A stretch of DNA of 64,000 nucleotides, taken from an uncultured bacterium. GTDB lineage: Bacteria > Patescibacteriota > Patescibacteriia > SG8-24 > DYFX01. Location of the stretch: contig CALCDZ010000004.1 of assembly GCA_937900255.1 (NCBI GenBank), positions 198,391 to 262,390 of the forward strand. The letters run 5' to 3'. The position numbers were made by a program, and so were the translations under genes. Below the pieces are notes generated by a model that saw only the letters and a program-made list of their open reading frames with translations, was not told where the DNA came from and ran no database searches. Numbering within the stretch: position 1 is the stretch's first letter; each line of letters starts with the position of its first letter. Shown piece by piece: positions 4,007 to 17,127 of the stretch.

Positions 4007-5728
4007 TCATTCTTTGGTGACGCGCATGATCTCTTCGAGCGTGGTGACGCCTTGGACGGCCTTGGCGAAACCGTCCACCACGATCGAGATCATGCCGTCC
4101 TTTTCCGCCGCCGCCATGATGTCCGCGCTGGGGGCATCCTTGTTGATCAGCTCCTGGATCGGCCTCGTGATCTCCAGCACTTCATAGATGCCCTGCCGCC
4201 CCTTGTACCCCTCGTTATTGCACTGCTTGCAGCCGGTGCCGTGGTAAAAATCGACCTTGTCGAGCGTCTGCCCTTTGGGGATGAACCCGTTGCGGGAAAG
4301 GTCGTCGGTCAGCTTGTCCAGGTCGTAGAGCTCTCCCAGCTCCTTGAGCTGCTGTTTCGCCAGCTTGTACGGCTGCGGGCAGTTCTTGCAGATCTTCCGG
4401 ACCAGGCGCTGCGCGACGATCATGTTGGCCGTGAAGGCCACGAGGAAGCGCGGCACGCCCATGTCGATCAGGCGGGGGAGAGACGTGACCGCGTCGTTGG
4501 TGTGGAGCGTGGCGAAGACCAGGTGGCCGGTCATGGCGGCATTGGTGGCGATCTCGGCCGTCTCGCCGTCGCGGATCTCTCCGACCATGATGATGTTCGG
4601 GTCCTGCCGCAGCAGGGTGCGGAGGCCGATGGCGAAAGTGAAGCCGATCTTGGAATTGACCTGCGACTGGTTCACGCCGTTCATGCGGTATTCGACCGGA
4701 TCCTCGATCGTCGAGATGTTGACGCCGGGGGTGTTGCGCAGCGAGAGCACCGAGTAGAGCGTCGTGGTCTTGCCCGAGCCGGTCGGTCCCGTCACGAAGA
4801 CGATGCCGTGCGGCTTCATGATGTTGCGCTTCACCACCTCGAGGTCTTGGGCGTTGAAGCCGAGCTGTTCGAGCGTGAGCGCCGAGGCGGTCTCGGAAAG
4901 GAGGCGCATGACGATCTTTTCTCCGTCCATGACGGGCAGCGTCGAGACGCGGACGGAATACTTGTAGCTCGGGCCGCTGATCTTCATGCGGCCGTCCTGC
5001 GGCAGGCGGTGCTCGTCGAGTTTCAGATTGGAGAGCACCTTGATGCGGGCGGTCACGCCGGCCTGCGCGTTCTTCGGCAGCGTCATCACGTTGCGCAGGA
5101 TGCCGTCCACGCGGTACCGCACGGCCAGGTCCTGTTCGGTCGGTTCGATGTGGATGTCCGAAGCGCCTTCGAACACGGCGTGCTCGAGCAGCGATTCGAC
5201 GATGCGGACGACCGGCAGGTCCTGGGCCAGTTCGCGCAGCTTCTGCTGGTCGGTCTCTTCGCCGACGCCGGTGGATTTGGCGATGTCCTCGAACTCGGCC
5301 TTGAGCGACCGCTTGTACTGCTTGATGATCTCGTGGAGCGAGGCTGGCGTCGTGACATGGACATCGACCTCAAGCCCGGTCTTGTGCCTGAGGAACTCGA
5401 CGGTCTGAAGGTCTTCCGGGTCGAGCGCGGCGACTTTGAGGATCCCGTCGCCTTTGTCGAAGGGCACGATCTCGTGCGTCGTCGCGATCGGTTCCGGCAC
5501 CAGGTCGAGGAAGTCCTTCCGTACCTGGACGCCCTTGAGGTCGACGAACTGCACCTTGAAATAGTCCGCCGCGAGGCGATAGAGCGTCTCTTCGGGCATC
5601 TTCTCGAGCAGATGCTCTTCAAGCGCGGTCTTCTTCGTCTTGGCTTCGGCCGCAAGGTCCTTGATCTCCGCGGGCTTCAGGGTGCCTGCCGCCAGGAGGA
5701 TTTTCTGCAGAAGGGCGTCGCTGTACAT
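4007..5728 (-). CDS. pilB: Type IV pilus assembly ATPase PilB (GspE family)
   Basis: Walker A GPTGSGKTTT, a CxxC tetracysteine region (CKNC...CKQCNNEG) and an N-terminal GspE-N domain. The start is placed at MYSDALLQKIL (ATG 5728); the ORF stays open upstream to 5788, so the true start is ambiguous. Confidence 0.85.
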   Translation of the reverse strand: MYSDALLQKILLAAGTLKPAEIKDLAAEAKTKKTALEEHLLEKMPEETLYRLAADYFKVQFVDLKGVQVRKDFLDLVPEPIATTHEIVPFDKGDGILKVAALDPEDLQTVEFLRHKTGLEVDVHVTTPASLHEIIKQYKRSLKAEFEDIAKSTGVGEETDQQKLRELAQDLPVVRIVESLLEHAVFEGASDIHIEPTEQDLAVRYRVDGILRNVMTLPKNAQAGVTARIKVLSNLKLDEHRLPQDGRMKISGPSYKYSVRVSTLPVMDGEKIVMRLLSETASALTLEQLGFNAQDLEVVKRNIMKPHGIVFVTGPTGSGKTTTLYSVLSLRNTPGVNISTIEDPVEYRMNGVNQSQVNSKIGFTFAIGLRTLLRQDPNIIMVGEIRDGETAEIATNAAMTGHLVFATLHTNDAVTSLPRLIDMGVPRFLVAFTANMIVAQRLVRKICKNCPQPYKLAKQQLKELGELYDLDKLTDDLSRNGFIPKGQTLDKVDFYHGTGCKQCNNEGYKGRQGIYEVLEITRPIQELINKDAPSADIMAAAEKDGMISIVVDGFAKAVQGVTTLEEIMRVTKE

Positions 5729-6200: not shown

Positions 6201-7235
6201 ATGAATCCCGCCATCGCCGTCCTCATCGCCGCCGCCTCCGCGTTCGGCGTCGCCATGTTCGCGACTCCGGCCGTCACGCGGTTGCTCAAGTTCCTGAAGC
6301 TCGGCAAGCAGATCCGCAGCGAATCGAGCGCCCCTATCTTCTCCAAACTGCATGCCGCCAAGAGCGGGACGCCGACCATGGGCGGGATCCTGATCTGGGG
6401 CGCGGTCTTGGCCGTCGCGTTCGGGTTTTCCCTCGCTGCCAACGTGCTCCGCGTCGATCCGTGGGTCTCGCTCAATTTCATTTCGCGGCGCGAGACGCTC
6501 CTGCCGATGGCGGCCCTCTTCTTTTCGGCCATCGTCGGCCTGGTCGACGATTACCTGAACGTCCGCAAGATCGGCGCGCATGGCGGGGGACTGAAGGTCT
6601 GGCATCGCCTGTTGTCGTACTCGGTGATCGCCGTGGCGGCGGCGTGGTGGTTCTACGTGCGCCTGGAATGGGACGTCCTGCGCGTGCCGTTCTTCGGTAC
6701 GGTCCACGTCGGCCCGTGGATGATCCCGATCTTCATCTTCATCATCATCGCCACCGCATTTTCGGTGAACGAGACCGACGGGCTCGATGGCCTGGCCGCC
6801 GGAACGCTGCTCACGGCCTTCAGCATCTACGGAGCCATCGCGTTCTTCCAAGGCAAGACGGACCTGACGGCGTTCTGCGGCGCGATCGTCGGCGCGCTCC
6901 TGGCGTTCCTGTGGTTCAACATCAATCCCGCGCGTTTCTTCATGGGCGATACGGGCGCCATGTCGCTCGGCGTGACGCTCGGGATCGTCGCCATGCTGAC
7001 GAACAGCCTGCTGCTCCTGCCGATCGTCGGTTCGGTCTTCATGCTCGAATCCGTCTCCGTCATCATCCAGGTCGCGTCCAAGAAGATCCGCAAGAAAAAA
7101 GTCTTCCTATCGGCGCCCATCCATCACCACTTCGAGGCCAAGGGCTGGAGCGAAGCCACGATCGTGATGCGCCTGTGGGTCATCTCGGCCGTGAGCGGCG
7201 TGCTAGGCCTCATCATCGCGCTGCTCGACCGATGA
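6201..7235 (+). CDS. mraY: Phospho-N-acetylmuramoyl-pentapeptide transferase MraY
   Basis: Motifs DDYLNV, NETDGLDGLA and HHHFE in a 10-TM polytopic architecture. Confidence 0.9.
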   Translation: MNPAIAVLIAAASAFGVAMFATPAVTRLLKFLKLGKQIRSESSAPIFSKLHAAKSGTPTMGGILIWGAVLAVAFGFSLAANVLRVDPWVSLNFISRRETLLPMAALFFSAIVGLVDDYLNVRKIGAHGGGLKVWHRLLSYSVIAVAAAWWFYVRLEWDVLRVPFFGTVHVGPWMIPIFIFIIIATAFSVNETDGLDGLAAGTLLTAFSIYGAIAFFQGKTDLTAFCGAIVGALLAFLWFNINPARFFMGDTGAMSLGVTLGIVAMLTNSLLLLPIVGSVFMLESVSVIIQVASKKIRKKKVFLSAPIHHHFEAKGWSEATIVMRLWVISAVSGVLGLIIALLDR

Positions 7236-10835: not shown

Positions 10836-11909
10836 ATGAAGATCCTGTTCGCCGGGGGAGGTACGCTCGGTCCGGTCACGCCGCTTTTGGCGGTGGCCGA
10901 CGAGATCCGCCGAGACCGGCCTGATATCGAATGCGTCTTCGTCGGCACGCCCGAAGGGCCGGAGCGCAGGTTGGTCGAAGAGGCGGGATTCCGGTTCCTC
11001 GCGCTCGCTTCGCCTAAGTTCCGGAGGTATTTCGATCTCAAGACGTTAGCCTTGCCGATCGAGTTCGGTGCGGCGCTTTGGAACGCCGGGCGGATCGTCG
11101 CGCGGGAAAAGCCCGCCCTGGTCGTCGGGGCAGGCGGGTACGTGCAGGTGGCGCTCGGCTATGCCGCCAAGCTCGCCGGGAAGAAGCTGCTGCTGCATCA
11201 GCAGGATGTCGTGCCGTCGCTCAGCAATCGGCTGCTCGCGCCGTTCGCCGATGCCATCACGACCGTCTTCAAGATTTCCGAGAACGATTTCCCGGCGGCG
11301 AAGACCGAGACCGTCGGGAATCCGGTGCGGAGATCGATCGAGGAGGGGAGCCGCGAGAAGGGGTTGAAGTCGCTCGGCTTCACCGGCGAACGGCCCGTCG
11401 TCCTGGCGTTCGGCGGCGGCACCGGTTCCGCGTTCCTCAACGAGATGATCGCGCTCGCGTCGGCGCACTGGACGGGGTTCGCCGACTTGGTCCACATCAC
11501 AGGCCTTGAGAAAGCGCCCGGCCGGCTGCCTCCGCTCGAACATCCCGAACGTTATCGCCGGGTGGAATTCGTCGGCGCCGACATCGCGCATCTCATGGCC
11601 GCCGCCGATGCGGTCATCGGGCGCTCCGGCATGGGCACGCTGACCGAGCTGGCCGCCTTGGCCAAGCCGGTCATCCTGGTGCCGATCGCCGGCTCGCATC
11701 AGGAGAAGAACGCCGAGTACGTCGTCGAACACGGCGGTGCGCGCATGTTCCGCGAGCTTGACCTGACGCCGGAGCAGCTCGTCACCTTCACCCATGAGCT
11801 GCTCAAGAAGCCGGAGGAGGCGCGGCATCTCGGGATGCGCCTCCAGGCGATCTTCCGGCCCGGTGCCAGGCGCGCGCTGGCCGACAAGGCGCTCTCCTTG
11901 CTATCATGA
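10836..11909 (+). CDS. murG: UDP-GlcNAc:undecaprenyl-PP-MurNAc-pentapeptide GlcNAc transferase MurG
   Basis: MKILFAGGGTLGPVTPLLAVADE... is a glycine-rich GT28 N-terminal loop. The C-terminal region has the typical MurG UDP-GlcNAc binding sequence. The 622-aa track ORF from 10041 is an artefactual upstream extension across ftsW. Confidence 0.85.
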   Translation: MKILFAGGGTLGPVTPLLAVADEIRRDRPDIECVFVGTPEGPERRLVEEAGFRFLALASPKFRRYFDLKTLALPIEFGAALWNAGRIVAREKPALVVGAGGYVQVALGYAAKLAGKKLLLHQQDVVPSLSNRLLAPFADAITTVFKISENDFPAAKTETVGNPVRRSIEEGSREKGLKSLGFTGERPVVLAFGGGTGSAFLNEMIALASAHWTGFADLVHITGLEKAPGRLPPLEHPERYRRVEFVGADIAHLMAAADAVIGRSGMGTLTELAALAKPVILVPIAGSHQEKNAEYVVEHGGARMFRELDLTPEQLVTFTHELLKKPEEARHLGMRLQAIFRPGARRALADKALSLLS

Positions 11910-12570: not shown

Positions 12571-12984
12571 ATGTCGGGGAACCGGAAACCCGTCGCGCAC
12601 TCGGTCGCGCTTTGGGTCCTTTGCGGGCTCGTCGTATCGATGCTCCTCGCCGCATGGGGCTACTTTTCCGTCCTCGCGCGGCTCCGGCGGGACGTGGTGC
12701 AGGCGAAAGCTCCGAAGAGCGCGTCTTCCATGCAGGAACGGCAGCCTTCCTTGTTCGGCATGATTTCCGGCATCCAAGGCCGCCGCCTGAAAGTCGAATC
12801 GAAACAGGGGTATACCGAAATCCTTTTCGACGAGGATACGGCCATCTCGTCCGGTGCGGGTAAGGCCCTCTCGGACTCGCAGCTTTCCGTGGGCGCGGTC
12901 ATCACCGCGACCGGCAAGGATTTGGGTGGCGGACGGATGGGCGCAGCTGCCATCGTCGTCCTGGACGACTCCGCGCAGCCGTGA
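12571..12984 (+). CDS. Hypothetical membrane-anchored protein
   Basis: 137 aa with an N-terminal TM helix. No recognisable motif. Confidence 0.4.
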   Translation: MSGNRKPVAHSVALWVLCGLVVSMLLAAWGYFSVLARLRRDVVQAKAPKSASSMQERQPSLFGMISGIQGRRLKVESKQGYTEILFDEDTAISSGAGKALSDSQLSVGAVITATGKDLGGGRMGAAAIVVLDDSAQP

Positions 12985-14429
12985 CGCACCCTGTGGGCCC
13001 GCTGCCGCCGCTCACGCCCGAGGTCTTTTATGCGTACGCAAAGTGCCCCAACTGGGCGTATTGGGATCTTTTCGGCGACCCGGCCAAGAAGGGTTCGGTC
13101 CCGCCCATGCTCCAGAGGCTGCGCGAGGACGGCGTGCTGCATGAGAAGGAAGTGATCGCGCGGCTCGGCGCGTTCGAAGAAGCGCCGTCGCGCATGGCCG
13201 TTTCCGACGCGGCGACCGAGACTCTGGAGCTGATGCGTCGGGGCTCCGCGCTCATCTATCAAGGCACGCTCGCGGACGGTGACTGGGCGGGACGCCCGGA
13301 CCTGCTCCGTCGCGTCCCGGGATCGTCGAAGTTCGGCGACTGGATGTATGAGGCGGTCGACATCAAGTCGTCCCGCCAGGTGAGCGACGTCCACAAGCTG
13401 CAGCTGGTCTTTTACGCGCTGCTGCTCAAGAAGGTCCAAGGCGTGAAACCGGACGAAGGCAGGATCATCAACATCGACGGCGACGAGCTTTCGTTCCCGA
13501 TCGACGAAGCCGAGCCGGATTTCTTCGAGGCGCTCGACCGTATCCTGGCGATCCGGGCGGGGGAGAAGCCGCAGGCGCTCTTCACGTCGTCCTGCAAGGA
13601 TTCGCCGTGGTACGAGGAGTGCAAGCGCGAAGCCGAGGAGGCCGACGACATCGGGCTGCTCTATAAGATCTATAAGAGCGAATACCGGCGGCTGCGCGAG
13701 GCCGGGTATCGCACGCTGGCGCAGCTCGCTGCCGCCGACCTCGCGACGCTGCAGGAATCGGTGAGGGGCGTTTCCGGCCATCGGCTGGAACGGTTGCGGC
13801 TCCAGGCGCAGTCGCTGCACGAGAAGAAGGATATCCGCATCGAGGACCCGGGCCTGCCGGTTTCGGACGTCGAGCTGTTCTTCGACATCGAAGGCGATCC
13901 GATGATCGGCCTCGAGTACCTGCACGGCCTCCTGATCCGCGAGAACGGCACGGAGCGCTACCGGGCTTTCACCGCCGAAGCGCCCGAGGACGAAGGCGCA
14001 GCGTGGCTGTCCTTCTGCGATTTCATCGAGGGCTATGCCGGCGCGCCGATCTATCATTACGGCTGGTACGAGCTCGACGCCATCAGGCGACTGGGCGCCA
14101 AGCACGGCATCTCCCGCAAGGCCGCCATCGCGCTCGATCCCTCCAACATGATCGACCTCAACCGCGTGGCTCAGCGCTCCGTCATCTTCCCGCTCTATTT
14201 CTACTCGCTGAAGGACGTGGCGCGCCACCTCGGCTTCCGCTGGCGCGCCGCCGACGCTTCCGGCGCCAACTCGGTGCTTTGGTTCCAGGAATGGCGCGAA
14301 AAAGGCGACCGCGCGCTCTTGCGGAAGATCACCGACTATAACGAAGACGACGTACGGGCCACGGCCGTCCTCAAGGATTGGCTGGCGTTCCAGTCGCCGC
14401 CAGGATGCGGAACGCCCGATGTTCGCTGA
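12981..14429 (+). CDS. RecB-family nuclease, TM0106-type (PD-(D/E)xK N-domain plus RNase H-like C-domain)
   Basis: N-terminal Cas4/RecB-like YAKCPNWAYW and YEAVDIKS (D-x-K). C-terminal FFDIEGDP and YNEDDV exonuclease-like motifs. 482 aa. Confidence 0.6.
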   Translation: MTHPVGPLPPLTPEVFYAYAKCPNWAYWDLFGDPAKKGSVPPMLQRLREDGVLHEKEVIARLGAFEEAPSRMAVSDAATETLELMRRGSALIYQGTLADGDWAGRPDLLRRVPGSSKFGDWMYEAVDIKSSRQVSDVHKLQLVFYALLLKKVQGVKPDEGRIINIDGDELSFPIDEAEPDFFEALDRILAIRAGEKPQALFTSSCKDSPWYEECKREAEEADDIGLLYKIYKSEYRRLREAGYRTLAQLAAADLATLQESVRGVSGHRLERLRLQAQSLHEKKDIRIEDPGLPVSDVELFFDIEGDPMIGLEYLHGLLIRENGTERYRAFTAEAPEDEGAAWLSFCDFIEGYAGAPIYHYGWYELDAIRRLGAKHGISRKAAIALDPSNMIDLNRVAQRSVIFPLYFYSLKDVARHLGFRWRAADASGANSVLWFQEWREKGDRALLRKITDYNEDDVRATAVLKDWLAFQSPPGCGTPDVR

Positions 14430-15249
14430 AGTTCTGCACGAAGCCATTTTCGAGCGAGGCACGGACGGAAAGGTCGTAATCGCCGGGGACGGCGGTGAAG
14501 GGTGCCGTCCAGAGACCGGCCGTATCGGCAGGGGAGGCTTCCAATCTTCGGAGATCGCCCGCAGCATCCTTGATTTCGAAGATCATGCCGACGGCCGTGG
14601 CGTTCCCGATACGGACGGAAACGTCGAAGGGATCGTCTTGAACCGCTTCGGCGGCAGGGAAGAGGATCGCGAGCGTCGGAGCGACGTCGGGCGCCGGCGG
14701 CTCCAGCCGGTTTGCGGCCGGTGAGACGTCGACCCGTCGCGTCGGGGAACTGACGCTTCGCCCGTCCCTCGAGAACGCGTCCAGACGTACATCGTAGGTC
14801 TGTCCGGGCGGGACATTGAAGACGGCTTGCCATGCGCCGTCCGGCGCGCGCGTCGCGGAGAAGTCCCGATCGAATCCCGTGCGGGATTCGACATGGAAGT
14901 CCGCGACGAGGACGGGGAAGCCGATGACGGTTCCGGAGGCGCTGATCACGTTGCTTTCCTGGTGCGCGAGGCCGGCCATGATCGTCAGGAACGGAGCGGC
15001 GGAGACGTCCGGCTGGACGGCGATTTCCGGTGCCGGTTCCGGCTCAACACTGGAGGCGGCGCGCCGGAGCGTCAATCGCCTGATCCCGTCGGCGGATGTC
15101 TCGATGACCGTACCGGCGACGCGCAGGACCTCAGGGCCCGCGAGCAGCGACAGGAAAAGCGCCATCGCTCCGAGGGCGACGTGTCGGCGCGTCCTATGGT
15201 CGTCGAGGCGCGCGAGCTTCTCTTGGAACCGATGACGGAATCCTTTCAT
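14371..15249 (-). CDS. Hypothetical secreted or membrane-anchored protein
   Basis: 292 aa with an N-terminal hydrophobic signal/anchor (ALGAMALFLSLLAG). A TGgTAAAAT extended -10 lies 12 nt upstream. It overlaps the 3' end of the nuclease gene by 59 nt in convergent orientation. Confidence 0.45.
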   Translation of the reverse strand: MKGFRHRFQEKLARLDDHRTRRHVALGAMALFLSLLAGPEVLRVAGTVIETSADGIRRLTLRRAASSVEPEPAPEIAVQPDVSAAPFLTIMAGLAHQESNVISASGTVIGFPVLVADFHVESRTGFDRDFSATRAPDGAWQAVFNVPPGQTYDVRLDAFSRDGRSVSSPTRRVDVSPAANRLEPPAPDVAPTLAILFPAAEAVQDDPFDVSVRIGNATAVGMIFEIKDAAGDLRRLEASPADTAGLWTAPFTAVPGDYDLSVRASLENGFVQNFSEHRAFRILAATGTPANP

Positions 15250-15280
15250 GGCTCGGGGTGCTACGCGGGCATTTTACCAC

Positions 15281-15312
15281 GAAAAGCAAAGAACCGGGGT
15301 CACCGGTTCTCG
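15281..15312 (-). terminator. Rho-independent terminator of the Cys-rich gene
   Basis: On the minus strand, GAACCGG-tgacc-CCGGTTC is followed by TTTGCTTTTCG. The stop codon sits in the loop. Confidence 0.5.
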
Positions 15313-15479
15313 CATCCGCAGGCGTCGCCTTTGCAGCAGCCTGCCGTTTCGTTCTGGGCGGAGCAGTCGCATCCGTCGCAGCCCTTGTCCGGGCACTCGG
15401 AGCAGCACCCGTCCTTGCCCTTTTCGTCCGTCATCCCTTCCTCTTTCGGCTCGCCGTGATTCTTGCAGCATTCTTCCAT
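15300..15479 (-). CDS. Cys-rich metallothionein-like small protein (59 aa, 12 Cys); it falls below the 60-aa cutoff of the ORF track
   Basis: Reverse complement reads MEECCKNHGEPKEEGMTDEKGKDGCCSECPDKGCDGCDCSAQNETAGCCKGDACGCENR*. It has its own sigma70-like promoter (TTTACA-17-TATCCT) and an intrinsic terminator immediately after the stop. Confidence 0.5.
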   Translation of the reverse strand: MEECCKNHGEPKEEGMTDEKGKDGCCSECPDKGCDGCDCSAQNETAGCCKGDACGCENR

Positions 15480-15496
15480 AAGATTGGTTCGCGTCC

Positions 15497-15545
15497 AGGA
15501 TACGCTTTGCCGGAGGTTTTGTAAAGGTTTTTCCTGTGGTATGAT
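15497..15545. promoter_or_regulatory. Face-to-face divergent promoters
   Basis: Minus strand: TTTACA (15525..15520), 17-nt spacer, TATCCT (15502..15497). Plus strand: TTGTAA (15518-15523), 16-nt spacer, extended -10 TGgTATGAT (15537-15545). The two -35 regions overlap. Confidence 0.4.
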
Positions 15546-15556
15546 CGGTCCATCTT

Positions 15557-15754
15557 ATGGATACTTCTCCCATGCCGCAGCGGGACCGTCTCGATACCGC
15601 CATCAAGGCGCTGACCATTGTCAAGCTGCTCTTCCAGCTGGCGTGGTACGGCCTGCTGGTGGGCAGCACCATCTGGATCCTGATCGACAATCCCTTGCCG
15701 AGGGTGATCCGCGGCATCCAGGAGCAGGTGGTCAGTTCCTTCATCGGCAAGTGA
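15557..15754 (+). CDS. Hypothetical small membrane protein (65 aa)
   Basis: Hydrophobic core LTIVKLLFQLAWYGLLVGSTIWILI. It lies downstream of the extended -10 promoter. Confidence 0.4.
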   Translation: MDTSPMPQRDRLDTAIKALTIVKLLFQLAWYGLLVGSTIWILIDNPLPRVIRGIQEQVVSSFIGK

Positions 15755-15755
15755 C

Positions 15756-16100
15756 ATGAAGGCCGGCGCTTCCATGCTGTGCCTGCTGTGGTTCGCCGCC
15801 GCGGCTGTCGTCGGCTTCCGCCTGACGGCCCGCGATTTCCGCTGGGTCGATCGGCCTGGGTTCGGTTTCCCGCCGCTTCGATCGGCGGCAGGTTCCGTGA
15901 ATCCTTCCAAGCTCCCGCTGCTTCACTTGGATGTCCCTGGTTACCAGGTCCCCCAAGCCTTGAAGGACCGTCTCAAACAAGTCACGCCGCAGCAGTTCGC
16001 CTGCCTGCGCGTGGCCGTGAAGCCCGACCGCATCCAATCCGCGCTCCAAGGCAGGCTTACCGCCGAGGAAGCCGCCGCCGTCGAAGCATGCTTCAAATAA
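15756..16100 (+). CDS. Hypothetical secreted protein
   Basis: 114 aa with the signal peptide MKAGASMLCLLWFAAAAVVG. Its ATG overlaps the stop of the upstream gene. Confidence 0.4.
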   Translation: MKAGASMLCLLWFAAAAVVGFRLTARDFRWVDRPGFGFPPLRSAAGSVNPSKLPLLHLDVPGYQVPQALKDRLKQVTPQQFACLRVAVKPDRIQSALQGRLTAEEAAAVEACFK

Positions 16101-16105
16101 GCCGT

Positions 16106-16660
16106 ATGATCAAACGACCGAGACGTCTCCATCTTCTCATCATCGCGGCAAGCCTCGCGCTCCTGGCGGCCGGTGCCTGGTTCTATTCGAACGCCAGCGA
16201 CCCGGTCCCCGGAATCCCGGCGCGCACGGCGGGGCTCTCCGCTCCAGCTGTCGCAGCCAAGTCGGACATGGACGTCACGCTGTACTTCCCGAACGCCAAA
16301 CTCGGATCCGACCTGGATTGCGGCAAGGTCTTTCCGGTGCGCCGTTCGATCGCCGATACGGTCAATGACGGAGCGTTGCAGCAGCTGCTCAAGGGTCCGA
16401 CGTCGGACGAGCGGAAGCTCGGTTACGTCACGTCGATCCCTTCCGGCGTGAAGGTCGGCTCCGTCACTCGCCGCAAGATCGCCGCCGGCACGCAGGTCCT
16501 CGTCGACCTCAGCGCCGAGATGAGGACGGTCTCCGGTTCCTGCCGCGTCGCGTCGGCGCGCGCGCAGATCGAACAGACGCTCCTTCACGCGCAGCCCGAC
16601 CCGCCCGCGTCCGTCGTCATCTCGGTCGAAGGAGAGACTTCATCCGCCTTGCAACCCTGA
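16106..16660 (+). CDS. GerMN-domain (sporulation/germination-like) membrane-anchored protein
   Basis: Starts MIKRPRRLHLLIIAASLALLAAG. The domain region DVTLYFPNAKLGSD...VNDGALQQLLKGPTSDERKLGYVTSIP resembles GerM/LpqB GerMN. The call is a judgement from resemblance. Confidence 0.45.
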   Translation: MIKRPRRLHLLIIAASLALLAAGAWFYSNASDPVPGIPARTAGLSAPAVAAKSDMDVTLYFPNAKLGSDLDCGKVFPVRRSIADTVNDGALQQLLKGPTSDERKLGYVTSIPSGVKVGSVTRRKIAAGTQVLVDLSAEMRTVSGSCRVASARAQIEQTLLHAQPDPPASVVISVEGETSSALQP

Positions 16661-16662
16661 CC

Positions 16663-17127
16663 ATGCCTACCACGCCCGCGCTTCCCCAACCCGAGATCGA
16701 ACACCTCTACGCCGCCGGCTGGGCCGCGCTCCAAGCCGAAATGCTGAGCGAAGCTGAAGAGGCCTTTTTGGGCGTCCTCGCCAGCGATCCCTGGCATGCC
16801 GATGCCTTGAACGGGCTCGGGACGGTCTATTTCCATGAGAAGCGCCTGGATGAGGCTGAAGCGATGTATGCGAGCGGCAAGAAATCCGTCCTGAAGTTCT
16901 TCAAGGACAAGATGCCGGATCATGTCGATTGGGCCGCCCCGCATGACCGTACCCTCATCCGTTCGCTGCACGGATTGGCGCTGGTCGAGTACCGGCGCGG
17001 CAAGACCGCCACGGCCGAGAAGATGTTCGAAGAGATCGTCAGGCTCAACCCGAAGGACAACACCGGCGCGCGCTTCCTGGCCATGGACATCCGCAAGGGC
17101 AAGAAGACCTGGGATCAGAAATCATGA
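16663..17127 (+). CDS. TPR-repeat protein
   Basis: TPR-like helical repeats (AEEAFLGVLASDPWHADALNGLGTVYF...). Confidence 0.55.
   Translation: MPTTPALPQPEIEHLYAAGWAALQAEMLSEAEEAFLGVLASDPWHADALNGLGTVYFHEKRLDEAEAMYASGKKSVLKFFKDKMPDHVDWAAPHDRTLIRSLHGLALVEYRRGKTATAEKMFEEIVRLNPKDNTGARFLAMDIRKGKKTWDQKS

Follow-up and report, generated by a model that had tools for sequence, protein, structure and literature searches.

Can a very short, cysteine-laden open reading frame (ORF) in GC-rich DNA be a gene, and if so, what would its product do? This question was raised by the minus strand of a 64,000-nt stretch from an uncultured Patescibacteriota bacterium (the window, i.e., the whole stretch of DNA that was analyzed), for which the original prediction had proposed an acidic 59-aa peptide with 12 Cys. 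The frame, referred to below as the Cys gene, is located as follows:

15479..15300, minus strand: coding sequence of the Cys-rich protein, 59 aa with 12 Cys, stop codon TGA at 15302..15300

The translation of this ORF, MEECCKNHGEPKEEGMTDEKGKDGCCSECPDKGCDGCDCSAQNETAGCCKGDACGCENR, matched the predicted peptide exactly. With 15 acidic and 7 basic residues, the protein carries a net charge of about -8. Its Cys fraction of 20.3% (12/59) was the highest of all 404 six-frame ORFs of at least 50 aa, the runner-up reaching 10.5%, and among the window ORFs of this length it was the sole case with zero L, I, V, F, W, and Y. The window has a GC content of 64%, and the outlying Cys fraction together with the missing hydrophobic residues shows that this composition is not a chance product of such DNA. 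As all six of these residues are missing, a signal peptide or hydrophobic segment can be ruled out. The chain starts with M-[DE]-x-C-C, continues with a variable K/E/D-rich linker, and ends in a core of the form GCCxxCPDKGCxGCxC[SA]xPxNxxG[CG]C(x2-4)CxCxN(G)R. The gene had also been described as unannotated, which has to be corrected: an identical protein is already called, without a name, in NCBI, ENA, and Logan records, and a 52-aa orthologue (locus L010, from the complete genome CP129476.1) is deposited as 'hypothetical protein QY323_02355'.

Relatives of the neighboring 482-aa nuclease gene (69-78% identity) supplied the loci for tblastn. The metagenome-assembled genomes (MAGs) concerned are labeled Patescibacteria, Minisyncoccota, or Candidatus Paceibacter, and some bear the third-party label 'uncultured Gammaproteobacteria'. 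Loci L004, L006, L009, L011, and others are titled 'uncultured Gammaproteobacteria bacterium' despite 69-78% identity and full synteny, and these titles on MAGs syntenic with Patescibacteria are probably a labeling error. Orthologues of the Cys gene were recovered by tblastn in L003, L005, L007, L010, and L011 and, partially, at the end of locus L008. A metagenome scan contributed the orthologue loci L039-L043, with L042 being the same contig as L007, and exact look-ups brought in loci L045 to L047, of which L045 and L047 hold further orthologues. Altogether, the gene was found at 13 loci besides the window, on contigs of metagenomes and in MAGs of related high-GC Patescibacteria. A homologue search by tblastn had been suggested along with the original prediction, and the orthologues it returned preserve the Cys pattern.

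Across these orthologues, every indel in the Cys gene was a multiple of three, and the pairwise dN/dS ranged from 0.14 to 0.50. Variable columns were distributed over codon positions 1/2/3 as 21/17/35, and the Cys codons showed synonymous TGC to TGT changes. The Cys residues were conserved although the sequences are only about 50% identical. Codon usage and GC3, proposed at the outset as a check, matched the host genes: the values for GC1/2/3 were 0.53/0.53/0.80, resembling those of flanking and host genes, and the codon choice was host-like as well. The in-frame indels, the dN/dS, the third-position variability, and the GC3 indicate that the minus-strand frame is coding, and a genuine protein-coding gene under purifying selection is well supported by these comparisons. 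The contrary reading would be a frame that GC-rich DNA leaves open by chance, or a real gene on the opposite strand, namely an antisense 88-aa ORF (15258..15524, plus strand). It is true that DNA of 64% GC gives long ORFs in many frames, and that the 88-aa frame is open in all relatives examined. However, substitutions are most frequent at the third positions of sense-frame codons, the antisense frame has a GC distribution of 0.80/0.53/0.53 vs the sense values given above, all Cys are retained at the low overall identity, and both the promoter-like site and the terminator described below are oriented for the minus strand. We consider a chance or antisense origin extremely improbable. Based on GC by position and substitutions, the very hydrophobic antisense ORF was rejected as a mirror artefact of a GC3-rich gene.

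The Cys family proved to be small. Two profile searches of a 5.8-billion-sequence collection yielded a complete family of 17 clusters, and an exhaustive HMMER search of 1.84 billion representatives found just two more true members of the family; the match P0004 was a repetitive false hit and was left out. A single-sequence word-index search returned the Cys protein itself only. Once over-long starts were corrected, all members measured 49-64 aa, and all are unnamed or 'hypothetical'. The family consensus reads M-[DE]-x-C-C-K, a K/E/D-rich linker of varying length, and G-C-C-x-x-C-P-D-K-G-C-x-G-C-x-C-S-K-P-E-N-x-x-G-C-C-(M-G)-G-x-C-x-C-x-N-(G)-R. In the alignment, the columns G24, C25, C26, C29, P30, C34, G36, C37, C39, C49, C56, and R59 were invariant, and C4, C5, and C54 (at least 90% conserved) as well as G33, P42, N44, and G47 were nearly so. 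C48 is replaced by Gly in several members, and P0018 is a divergent one with 14 Cys and a different C-terminus (...AAKDDDCCE). According to these searches, the family is narrow and confined to a small clade of high-GC groundwater Patescibacteria; groundwaters are the source of L003, L008, and L042.

The surroundings of the Cys gene contain the following features:

15497..15525, minus strand: sigma-70-like promoter candidate of the Cys gene, -35 TTTACA at 15525..15520, 17-nt spacer, -10 TATCCT at 15502..15497

15280..15311, minus strand: intrinsic terminator, hairpin GAGAACCGG-TGACC-CCGGTTCTT (15311..15289), then TTGCTTTTCG

15271..15279, minus strand: extended -10-like element TGGTAAAAT, between the terminator and the next ATG (15249)

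14371..15249, minus strand: downstream neighbor of 292 aa with an N-terminal membrane helix and repeated Ig/Fn3-like modules

15537..15545, plus strand: divergent extended -10, TGgTATGAT, 11 nt before the ATG of a 65-aa ORF

15557..15754, plus strand: small single-helix membrane protein of 65 aa (60 aa in public gene calls)

The predicted terminator at the stop codon was recovered by a consensus scan, with the hairpin at 15311..15289 and a T-rich run after it. The codons for the terminal E-N-R of the Cys protein make up its 5' arm, and the TGA stop falls inside the loop. A hairpin and T-run at the end of the Cys gene were present at 13/13 loci examined, with a dG of about -13 to -25 kcal/mol. 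Two forms, differing in both arms, were found (AACCGG/CCGGTT and AACGGCCGC/GCGGCCGTT): the hairpin GAGAACCGG-loop-CCGGTTCT accompanies proteins ending in ...ENR, and GAACGGCCGC-TAA-GGCGGCCGTTT accompanies those ending in ...NGR. At L047, which encodes a protein with a different C-terminus, a hairpin of unrelated sequence (GGGTCCGGCG-catc-GCCGGACC) with a T-run lies wholly after the stop. The occurrence of differing hairpins at one and the same place, L047 included, indicates that the terminator function is conserved and its sequence is free. The hairpin probably accounts for part of the conservation seen in the C-terminal N(G)R.

Between the terminator and the next gene, an element of the form TGGTA[ACG][AG]AT was found at every locus, including L004, where the Cys gene is missing. 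In the window, TGGTAAAAT is likely a separate promoter of the 292-aa gene, and its retention even in L004 argues that this gene is independent of read-through. The 292-aa protein had no family assignment, the sole Pfam signal being a faint Fn3 match (E of 0.21). The number of its Ig/Fn3-like modules varies, with 292 aa here vs about 470-510 aa in relatives; counterparts of the gene lie at 11299..12834 in L007 and at 5248..6663 in L045. The 482-aa nuclease gene (RNase_H_2 / PD-(D/E)XK, Cas4-like; 12981..14429, plus strand) converges on the 292-aa gene, and the 3' ends of the two overlap by 59 nt (14371..14429), in agreement with public calls (L001, 7051..7109).

On the promoter side, the predicted TTTACA-17-TATCCT was indeed present on the minus strand, with a distance of 17 nt, not 16 nt, from the end of the -10 to the ATG of the Cys gene and with no Shine-Dalgarno-like (SD) sequence in between. 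Taken alone, this match is weak, as the consensus scan gave one site in 3 kb vs 0.4 expected. However, 7/12 loci have a TTTACA-17/18-TA[TG][CG][CA]T at 16-19 nt from the start codon of the Cys gene, and the other 5/12 loci show a weaker TTGCAT-17-TAGCCT in the equivalent position. From these motifs, we infer promoter activity upstream of the Cys gene. Inspection of the Cys promoter by eye revealed no convincing cop-box-like or other operator palindrome, and Rfam, searched at a permissive threshold over 14000..17000, gave no match, hence no riboswitch or known leader.

The TGgTATGAT predicted ahead of the ORF for the 65-aa membrane protein could be located as well, and the position expected for the -35 of this divergent promoter (15517..15522) overlaps the -35 of the Cys gene (15520..15525). 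The two promoters had been called face-to-face; their actual geometry is divergent, i.e., back-to-back. What the comparison shows is that this tight divergent arrangement is conserved; the mutually exclusive or co-regulated expression that the original prediction had suggested for it would be a possible consequence. The gene for the small membrane protein adjoins the Cys gene at most loci, being absent in L045. Orthologues of the small membrane protein in L003 and L007 have a TGGTAC[AG][AC]T 6-8 nt before their ATG. An element 6-11 nt ahead of this ATG suggests leaderless or near-leaderless mRNAs in the clade. Extended -10-like elements of the form TGGTAnnAT recur from a few bases to about 20 nt before starts lacking an SD (L003-L011, L039-L047). 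In one subclade (L003 9843..9890, L005 8552..8599, L010 9843..9890), just 46 nt separate the start codon of the Cys gene from that of the membrane-protein gene, and at this spacing, the promoter-like elements of each gene must overlap the promoter or first codons of the other.

At 14/14 loci, the same order was observed: divergent small membrane protein (missing in L045), Cys gene, hairpin with T-run, TGGTA[ACG][AG]AT, and homologue of the 292-aa gene. The original prediction of a discrete unit was thereby borne out, as the promoter-like site, the coding sequence, the terminator, and the separate next extended -10 are conserved across loci. This strongly supports an independently transcribed unit, putatively running from promoter to terminator.

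It had been proposed that absence of the ORF between conserved flanking genes in close relatives would speak against it. Such a case was found in L004 only, whereas orthologues exist at 13 other loci. In L004, about 62 nt separate the start of the membrane-protein gene from that of the 292-aa gene, and the Cys gene has left no remnant there. The same locus (7053..7115) is also without the 114-aa gene that otherwise comes after the one for the small membrane protein, its remaining synteny being intact. In the nuclease identity matrix, L004 falls inside a clade otherwise carrying the Cys gene, and the outgroup clade L007/L008/L011 carries it too; loss in L004 is therefore the parsimonious explanation. 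Given this clean loss in one relative, the gene is dispensable.

The gene context was annotated over about 5 to 45 kb of the window. Within 10 kb either side of the Cys gene, we found L10, L7/L12, UMP kinase, bestrophin-like, XseA/XseB, Kelch, TPR, GerMN, PPIase, MurG, FtsW, Lon, MraY, and T2SS ATPase genes, and the further stretch was likewise of a housekeeping nature. Genes for a metal sensor, a metal pump or efflux system, or a metal chaperone were found neither within these 10 kb nor in the further annotated stretch.

Comparison with known families gave no relative. None of 16 Cys-family members matched a Pfam family and none of 8 an NCBIfam family (both E <=10, the SCIFF model included in the latter), and PADLOC returned no match for the family. 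The PDB profile search (E <=10) retrieved no metallothionein, though 1JJD, 6GV6, 6GV7, and 6GRV are in the library; a cellobiose dehydrogenase with an E of 2.2 was dismissed as a chance match. Direct hhalign comparison of the family gave a probability of 0.4% with SmtA and 0.7% with MymT, the latter being a weak test. By these comparisons, the Cys protein is outside the BmtA/SmtA and MymT families. The literature searched contained nothing on the Cys family, on its CPDKGC motif, or on a metallothionein of Patescibacteria. AlphaFold2, supplied with a 16-sequence alignment, reached a pLDDT of 48.6 and thus no confident metal-free fold; structural matches to such a model would be meaningless. The lack of a confident predicted fold is compatible with folding only on metal, without being evidence for it.

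What remains characteristic of the protein is its composition. As an operational class (Kagi/Binz-type), metallothioneins are smaller than about 10 kDa, rich in Cys, poor in aromatic and hydrophobic residues, and hold metal-thiolate clusters. The Cys protein has 59 aa (49-64 aa in the family), its Cys content of 20% lies within the usual range of about 15-30% and is arranged in conserved CC, CxC, and CxxC, and its content of aromatic and aliphatic residues is nil, as described above. The label 'metallothionein-like' given in the original prediction therefore fits in all these compositional respects, but it does not extend to a relation with known metallothionein families or to a metal gene nearby, so that it would have to be read as a compositional label. 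Since no hydrophobic core is possible and 11-12 conserved thiols are arranged in CC, CxC, and CxxC, a metal-thiolate cluster appears to be the most likely state. We give a somewhat better than even chance to a metallothionein-type metal-thiolate cluster protein that is cytoplasmic and lineage-restricted and acts in buffering or sequestration. Such a small, acidic, cytoplasmic protein, unable to fold around a hydrophobic core, would wrap its 11-12 conserved thiolates (CC, CxxC, Cx4C, CxxC, CxC, CC, CxC) around clustered metal ions. Judging by known clusters, the predicted load would be about four divalent ions (Zn/Cd) or 6-8 Cu(I), and the three vicinal CC pairs would be suitable for As(III) as well. 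The variable, charged, and probably disordered linker connects the N-terminal CC with the 10-Cys core. We infer metal binding, the identity and number of the metal ions, and the physiological role from the amino acid sequence. Against a metallothionein stand the missing similarity to known families, the neighborhood without a metal-related gene, and the conserved non-Cys residues (P-D-K-G, P42, N44), which exceed those of typical metallothioneins; this additional conservation may be explained by the narrow phylogenetic range of the family.

The same Cys-rich composition is also compatible with Fe-S, redox, and structural zinc roles. A thiol redox buffer, an oxidant scavenger, a persulfide or sulfur carrier, or a small Fe-S carrier would draw on compositional evidence identical to that for a metal-thiolate cluster, and the neighborhood without a metal-homeostasis gene as well as the role in oxidative-stress protection that is reported for metallothioneins (PMC11237414, PMC10612145) would suit such a function. 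We rate a redox or Fe-S role as unlikely, albeit worth keeping in mind, as the Cys spacing in the alignment is unlike the ferredoxin-type CxxCxxCxxxCP, and no match to an Fe-S or thioredoxin-like family was obtained. Moreover, many thiols in a short chain without a hydrophobic core are the classic composition of metal-thiolate clusters, and here 12 of them are found in fewer than 60 residues. Less probable still is a structural zinc micro-protein in which a few zinc knuckles would mediate binding to a partner, for instance RNA polymerase, the ribosome, or the membrane proteins encoded next to it. The conserved non-Cys positions (CPDKGC, SKPEN, and G residues) would fit this, and so would the fixed place beside the 292-aa membrane/Ig-like gene at 14/14 loci. 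However, the whole region is syntenic in a narrow clade, so this adjacency says little; L004 has retained the 292-aa gene while missing the Cys gene, the two genes are set apart elsewhere by a terminator and a promoter-like element of the second gene's own, and no zinc-ribbon or zinc-finger family was matched.

Two further explanations concern a peptide that is processed or merely translated. With its small size and its charged N-terminal and Cys-rich C-terminal parts, the product superficially resembles the leader and core of a RiPP precursor, which would give rise to a Cys-rich modified peptide (SCIFF/ranthipeptide-like) or a thiol-rich metallophore. Against this, the Pfam list for 10 kb either side held no radical-SAM (Radical_SAM/SPASM) or other maturase, protease, or exporter, no maturase was found in the conserved syntenic loci of the relatives, NCBIfam gave no match even with its SCIFF model, and what would be the leader contains the conserved N-terminal CC, all of which makes a RiPP precursor very unlikely. 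Marginally less probable than this is a Cys-sensing attenuator, i.e., a regulatory leader controlling read-through into the 292-aa gene. It would find its basis in the position of the stop codon in the terminator loop and the coding 5' arm at 12/13 loci examined, an arrangement in which a terminating ribosome would mask the hairpin. However, purifying selection reaches well beyond the Cys codons (as seen in the dN/dS and in the invariant G24, P30, G36, and R59), and the coding sequence contains no stretch of 6 nt or more that could act as an antiterminator by pairing with the 5' arm. At 50-64 aa, the products are far longer than known leader peptides. The 292-aa gene has its own extended -10 at every locus, L004 without the ORF included, and lacks a link to cysteine metabolism, and the L047 terminator lies wholly downstream of the stop.

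Returning to the metal-thiolate protein as the preferred explanation, we consider the Cys protein a candidate for a new bacterial metallothionein-like family that is sequence-unrelated to any described. Bacterial metallothioneins are rare, and according to PMC7387436, MymT and SmtA were the only two whose biological function had been investigated. If metal binding holds true, the protein would represent a third, sequence-independent bacterial family, in a phylum with almost no experimentally characterized proteins. It would then be a further case of convergent evolution of metal-thiolate proteins and would open a way into how ultra-small groundwater bacteria deal with metals. Evenly balanced, in our estimate, is the more far-reaching proposal of a first metallothionein-type family of the Candidate Phyla Radiation, that is, an independent 12-Cys metal/metalloid sponge of one high-GC groundwater Paceibacteria-like clade, expressed from its own promoter-terminator cassette and buffering or hoarding Zn, Cu, Cd, or As(III) in ultra-small cells. 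As the peptide is short, synthetic or recombinant production is feasible, and the claim of metal binding is thus directly testable. The locus is, in addition, a clean small example of compact transcription units, with the last codons forming the terminator and the next extended -10 following within a few bases.

For better comparison, the Cys protein was set against four known systems. With SCIFF/ranthipeptide precursors, it shares the short length and the Cys-rich C-terminal half, but it has twice the Cys, CC pairs included, and is without a radical-SAM maturase in its vicinity (10 kb). Like the BmtA/SmtA proteins (PF02069; 1JJD, 6GV6, 6GV7, 6GRV), it would be a short bacterial protein (about 55 residues) that is Cys-rich, cytoplasmic, and specified by a single-gene unit. 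SmtA reportedly has a zinc-finger-like fold around a Zn4Cys9His2 cluster, with His ligands and aromatics, whereas the core of the Cys protein has neither conserved His ligands nor aromatic residues. In the classical arrangement, smtA adjoins smtB, and no SmtB-like repressor adjoins the Cys gene. The Cu(I)-binding MymT of Mycobacterium tuberculosis is similarly a small, lineage-restricted, Cys-rich bacterial protein that annotation missed or left unnamed; it has hydrophobic and aromatic residues and fewer Cys than the Cys protein. The metallothionein class at large, represented by vertebrate MT-1/2, yeast Cup1, and the Neurospora Cu-MT, offers the closest compositional parallel: a mass below 7 kDa, 20-23% Cys as CC, CxC, and CxxC, a lack of hydrophobic residues both aromatic and aliphatic, an abundance of Lys, Asp, Glu, Gly, and Ser, and the absence of a confident fold in the metal-free state. 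The Cys protein differs from this class in having no detectable sequence relationship to it and a metal binding that is putative, and it is set apart by the long charged linker between the N-terminal CC and the 10-Cys core as well as by the conserved CPDKGC.
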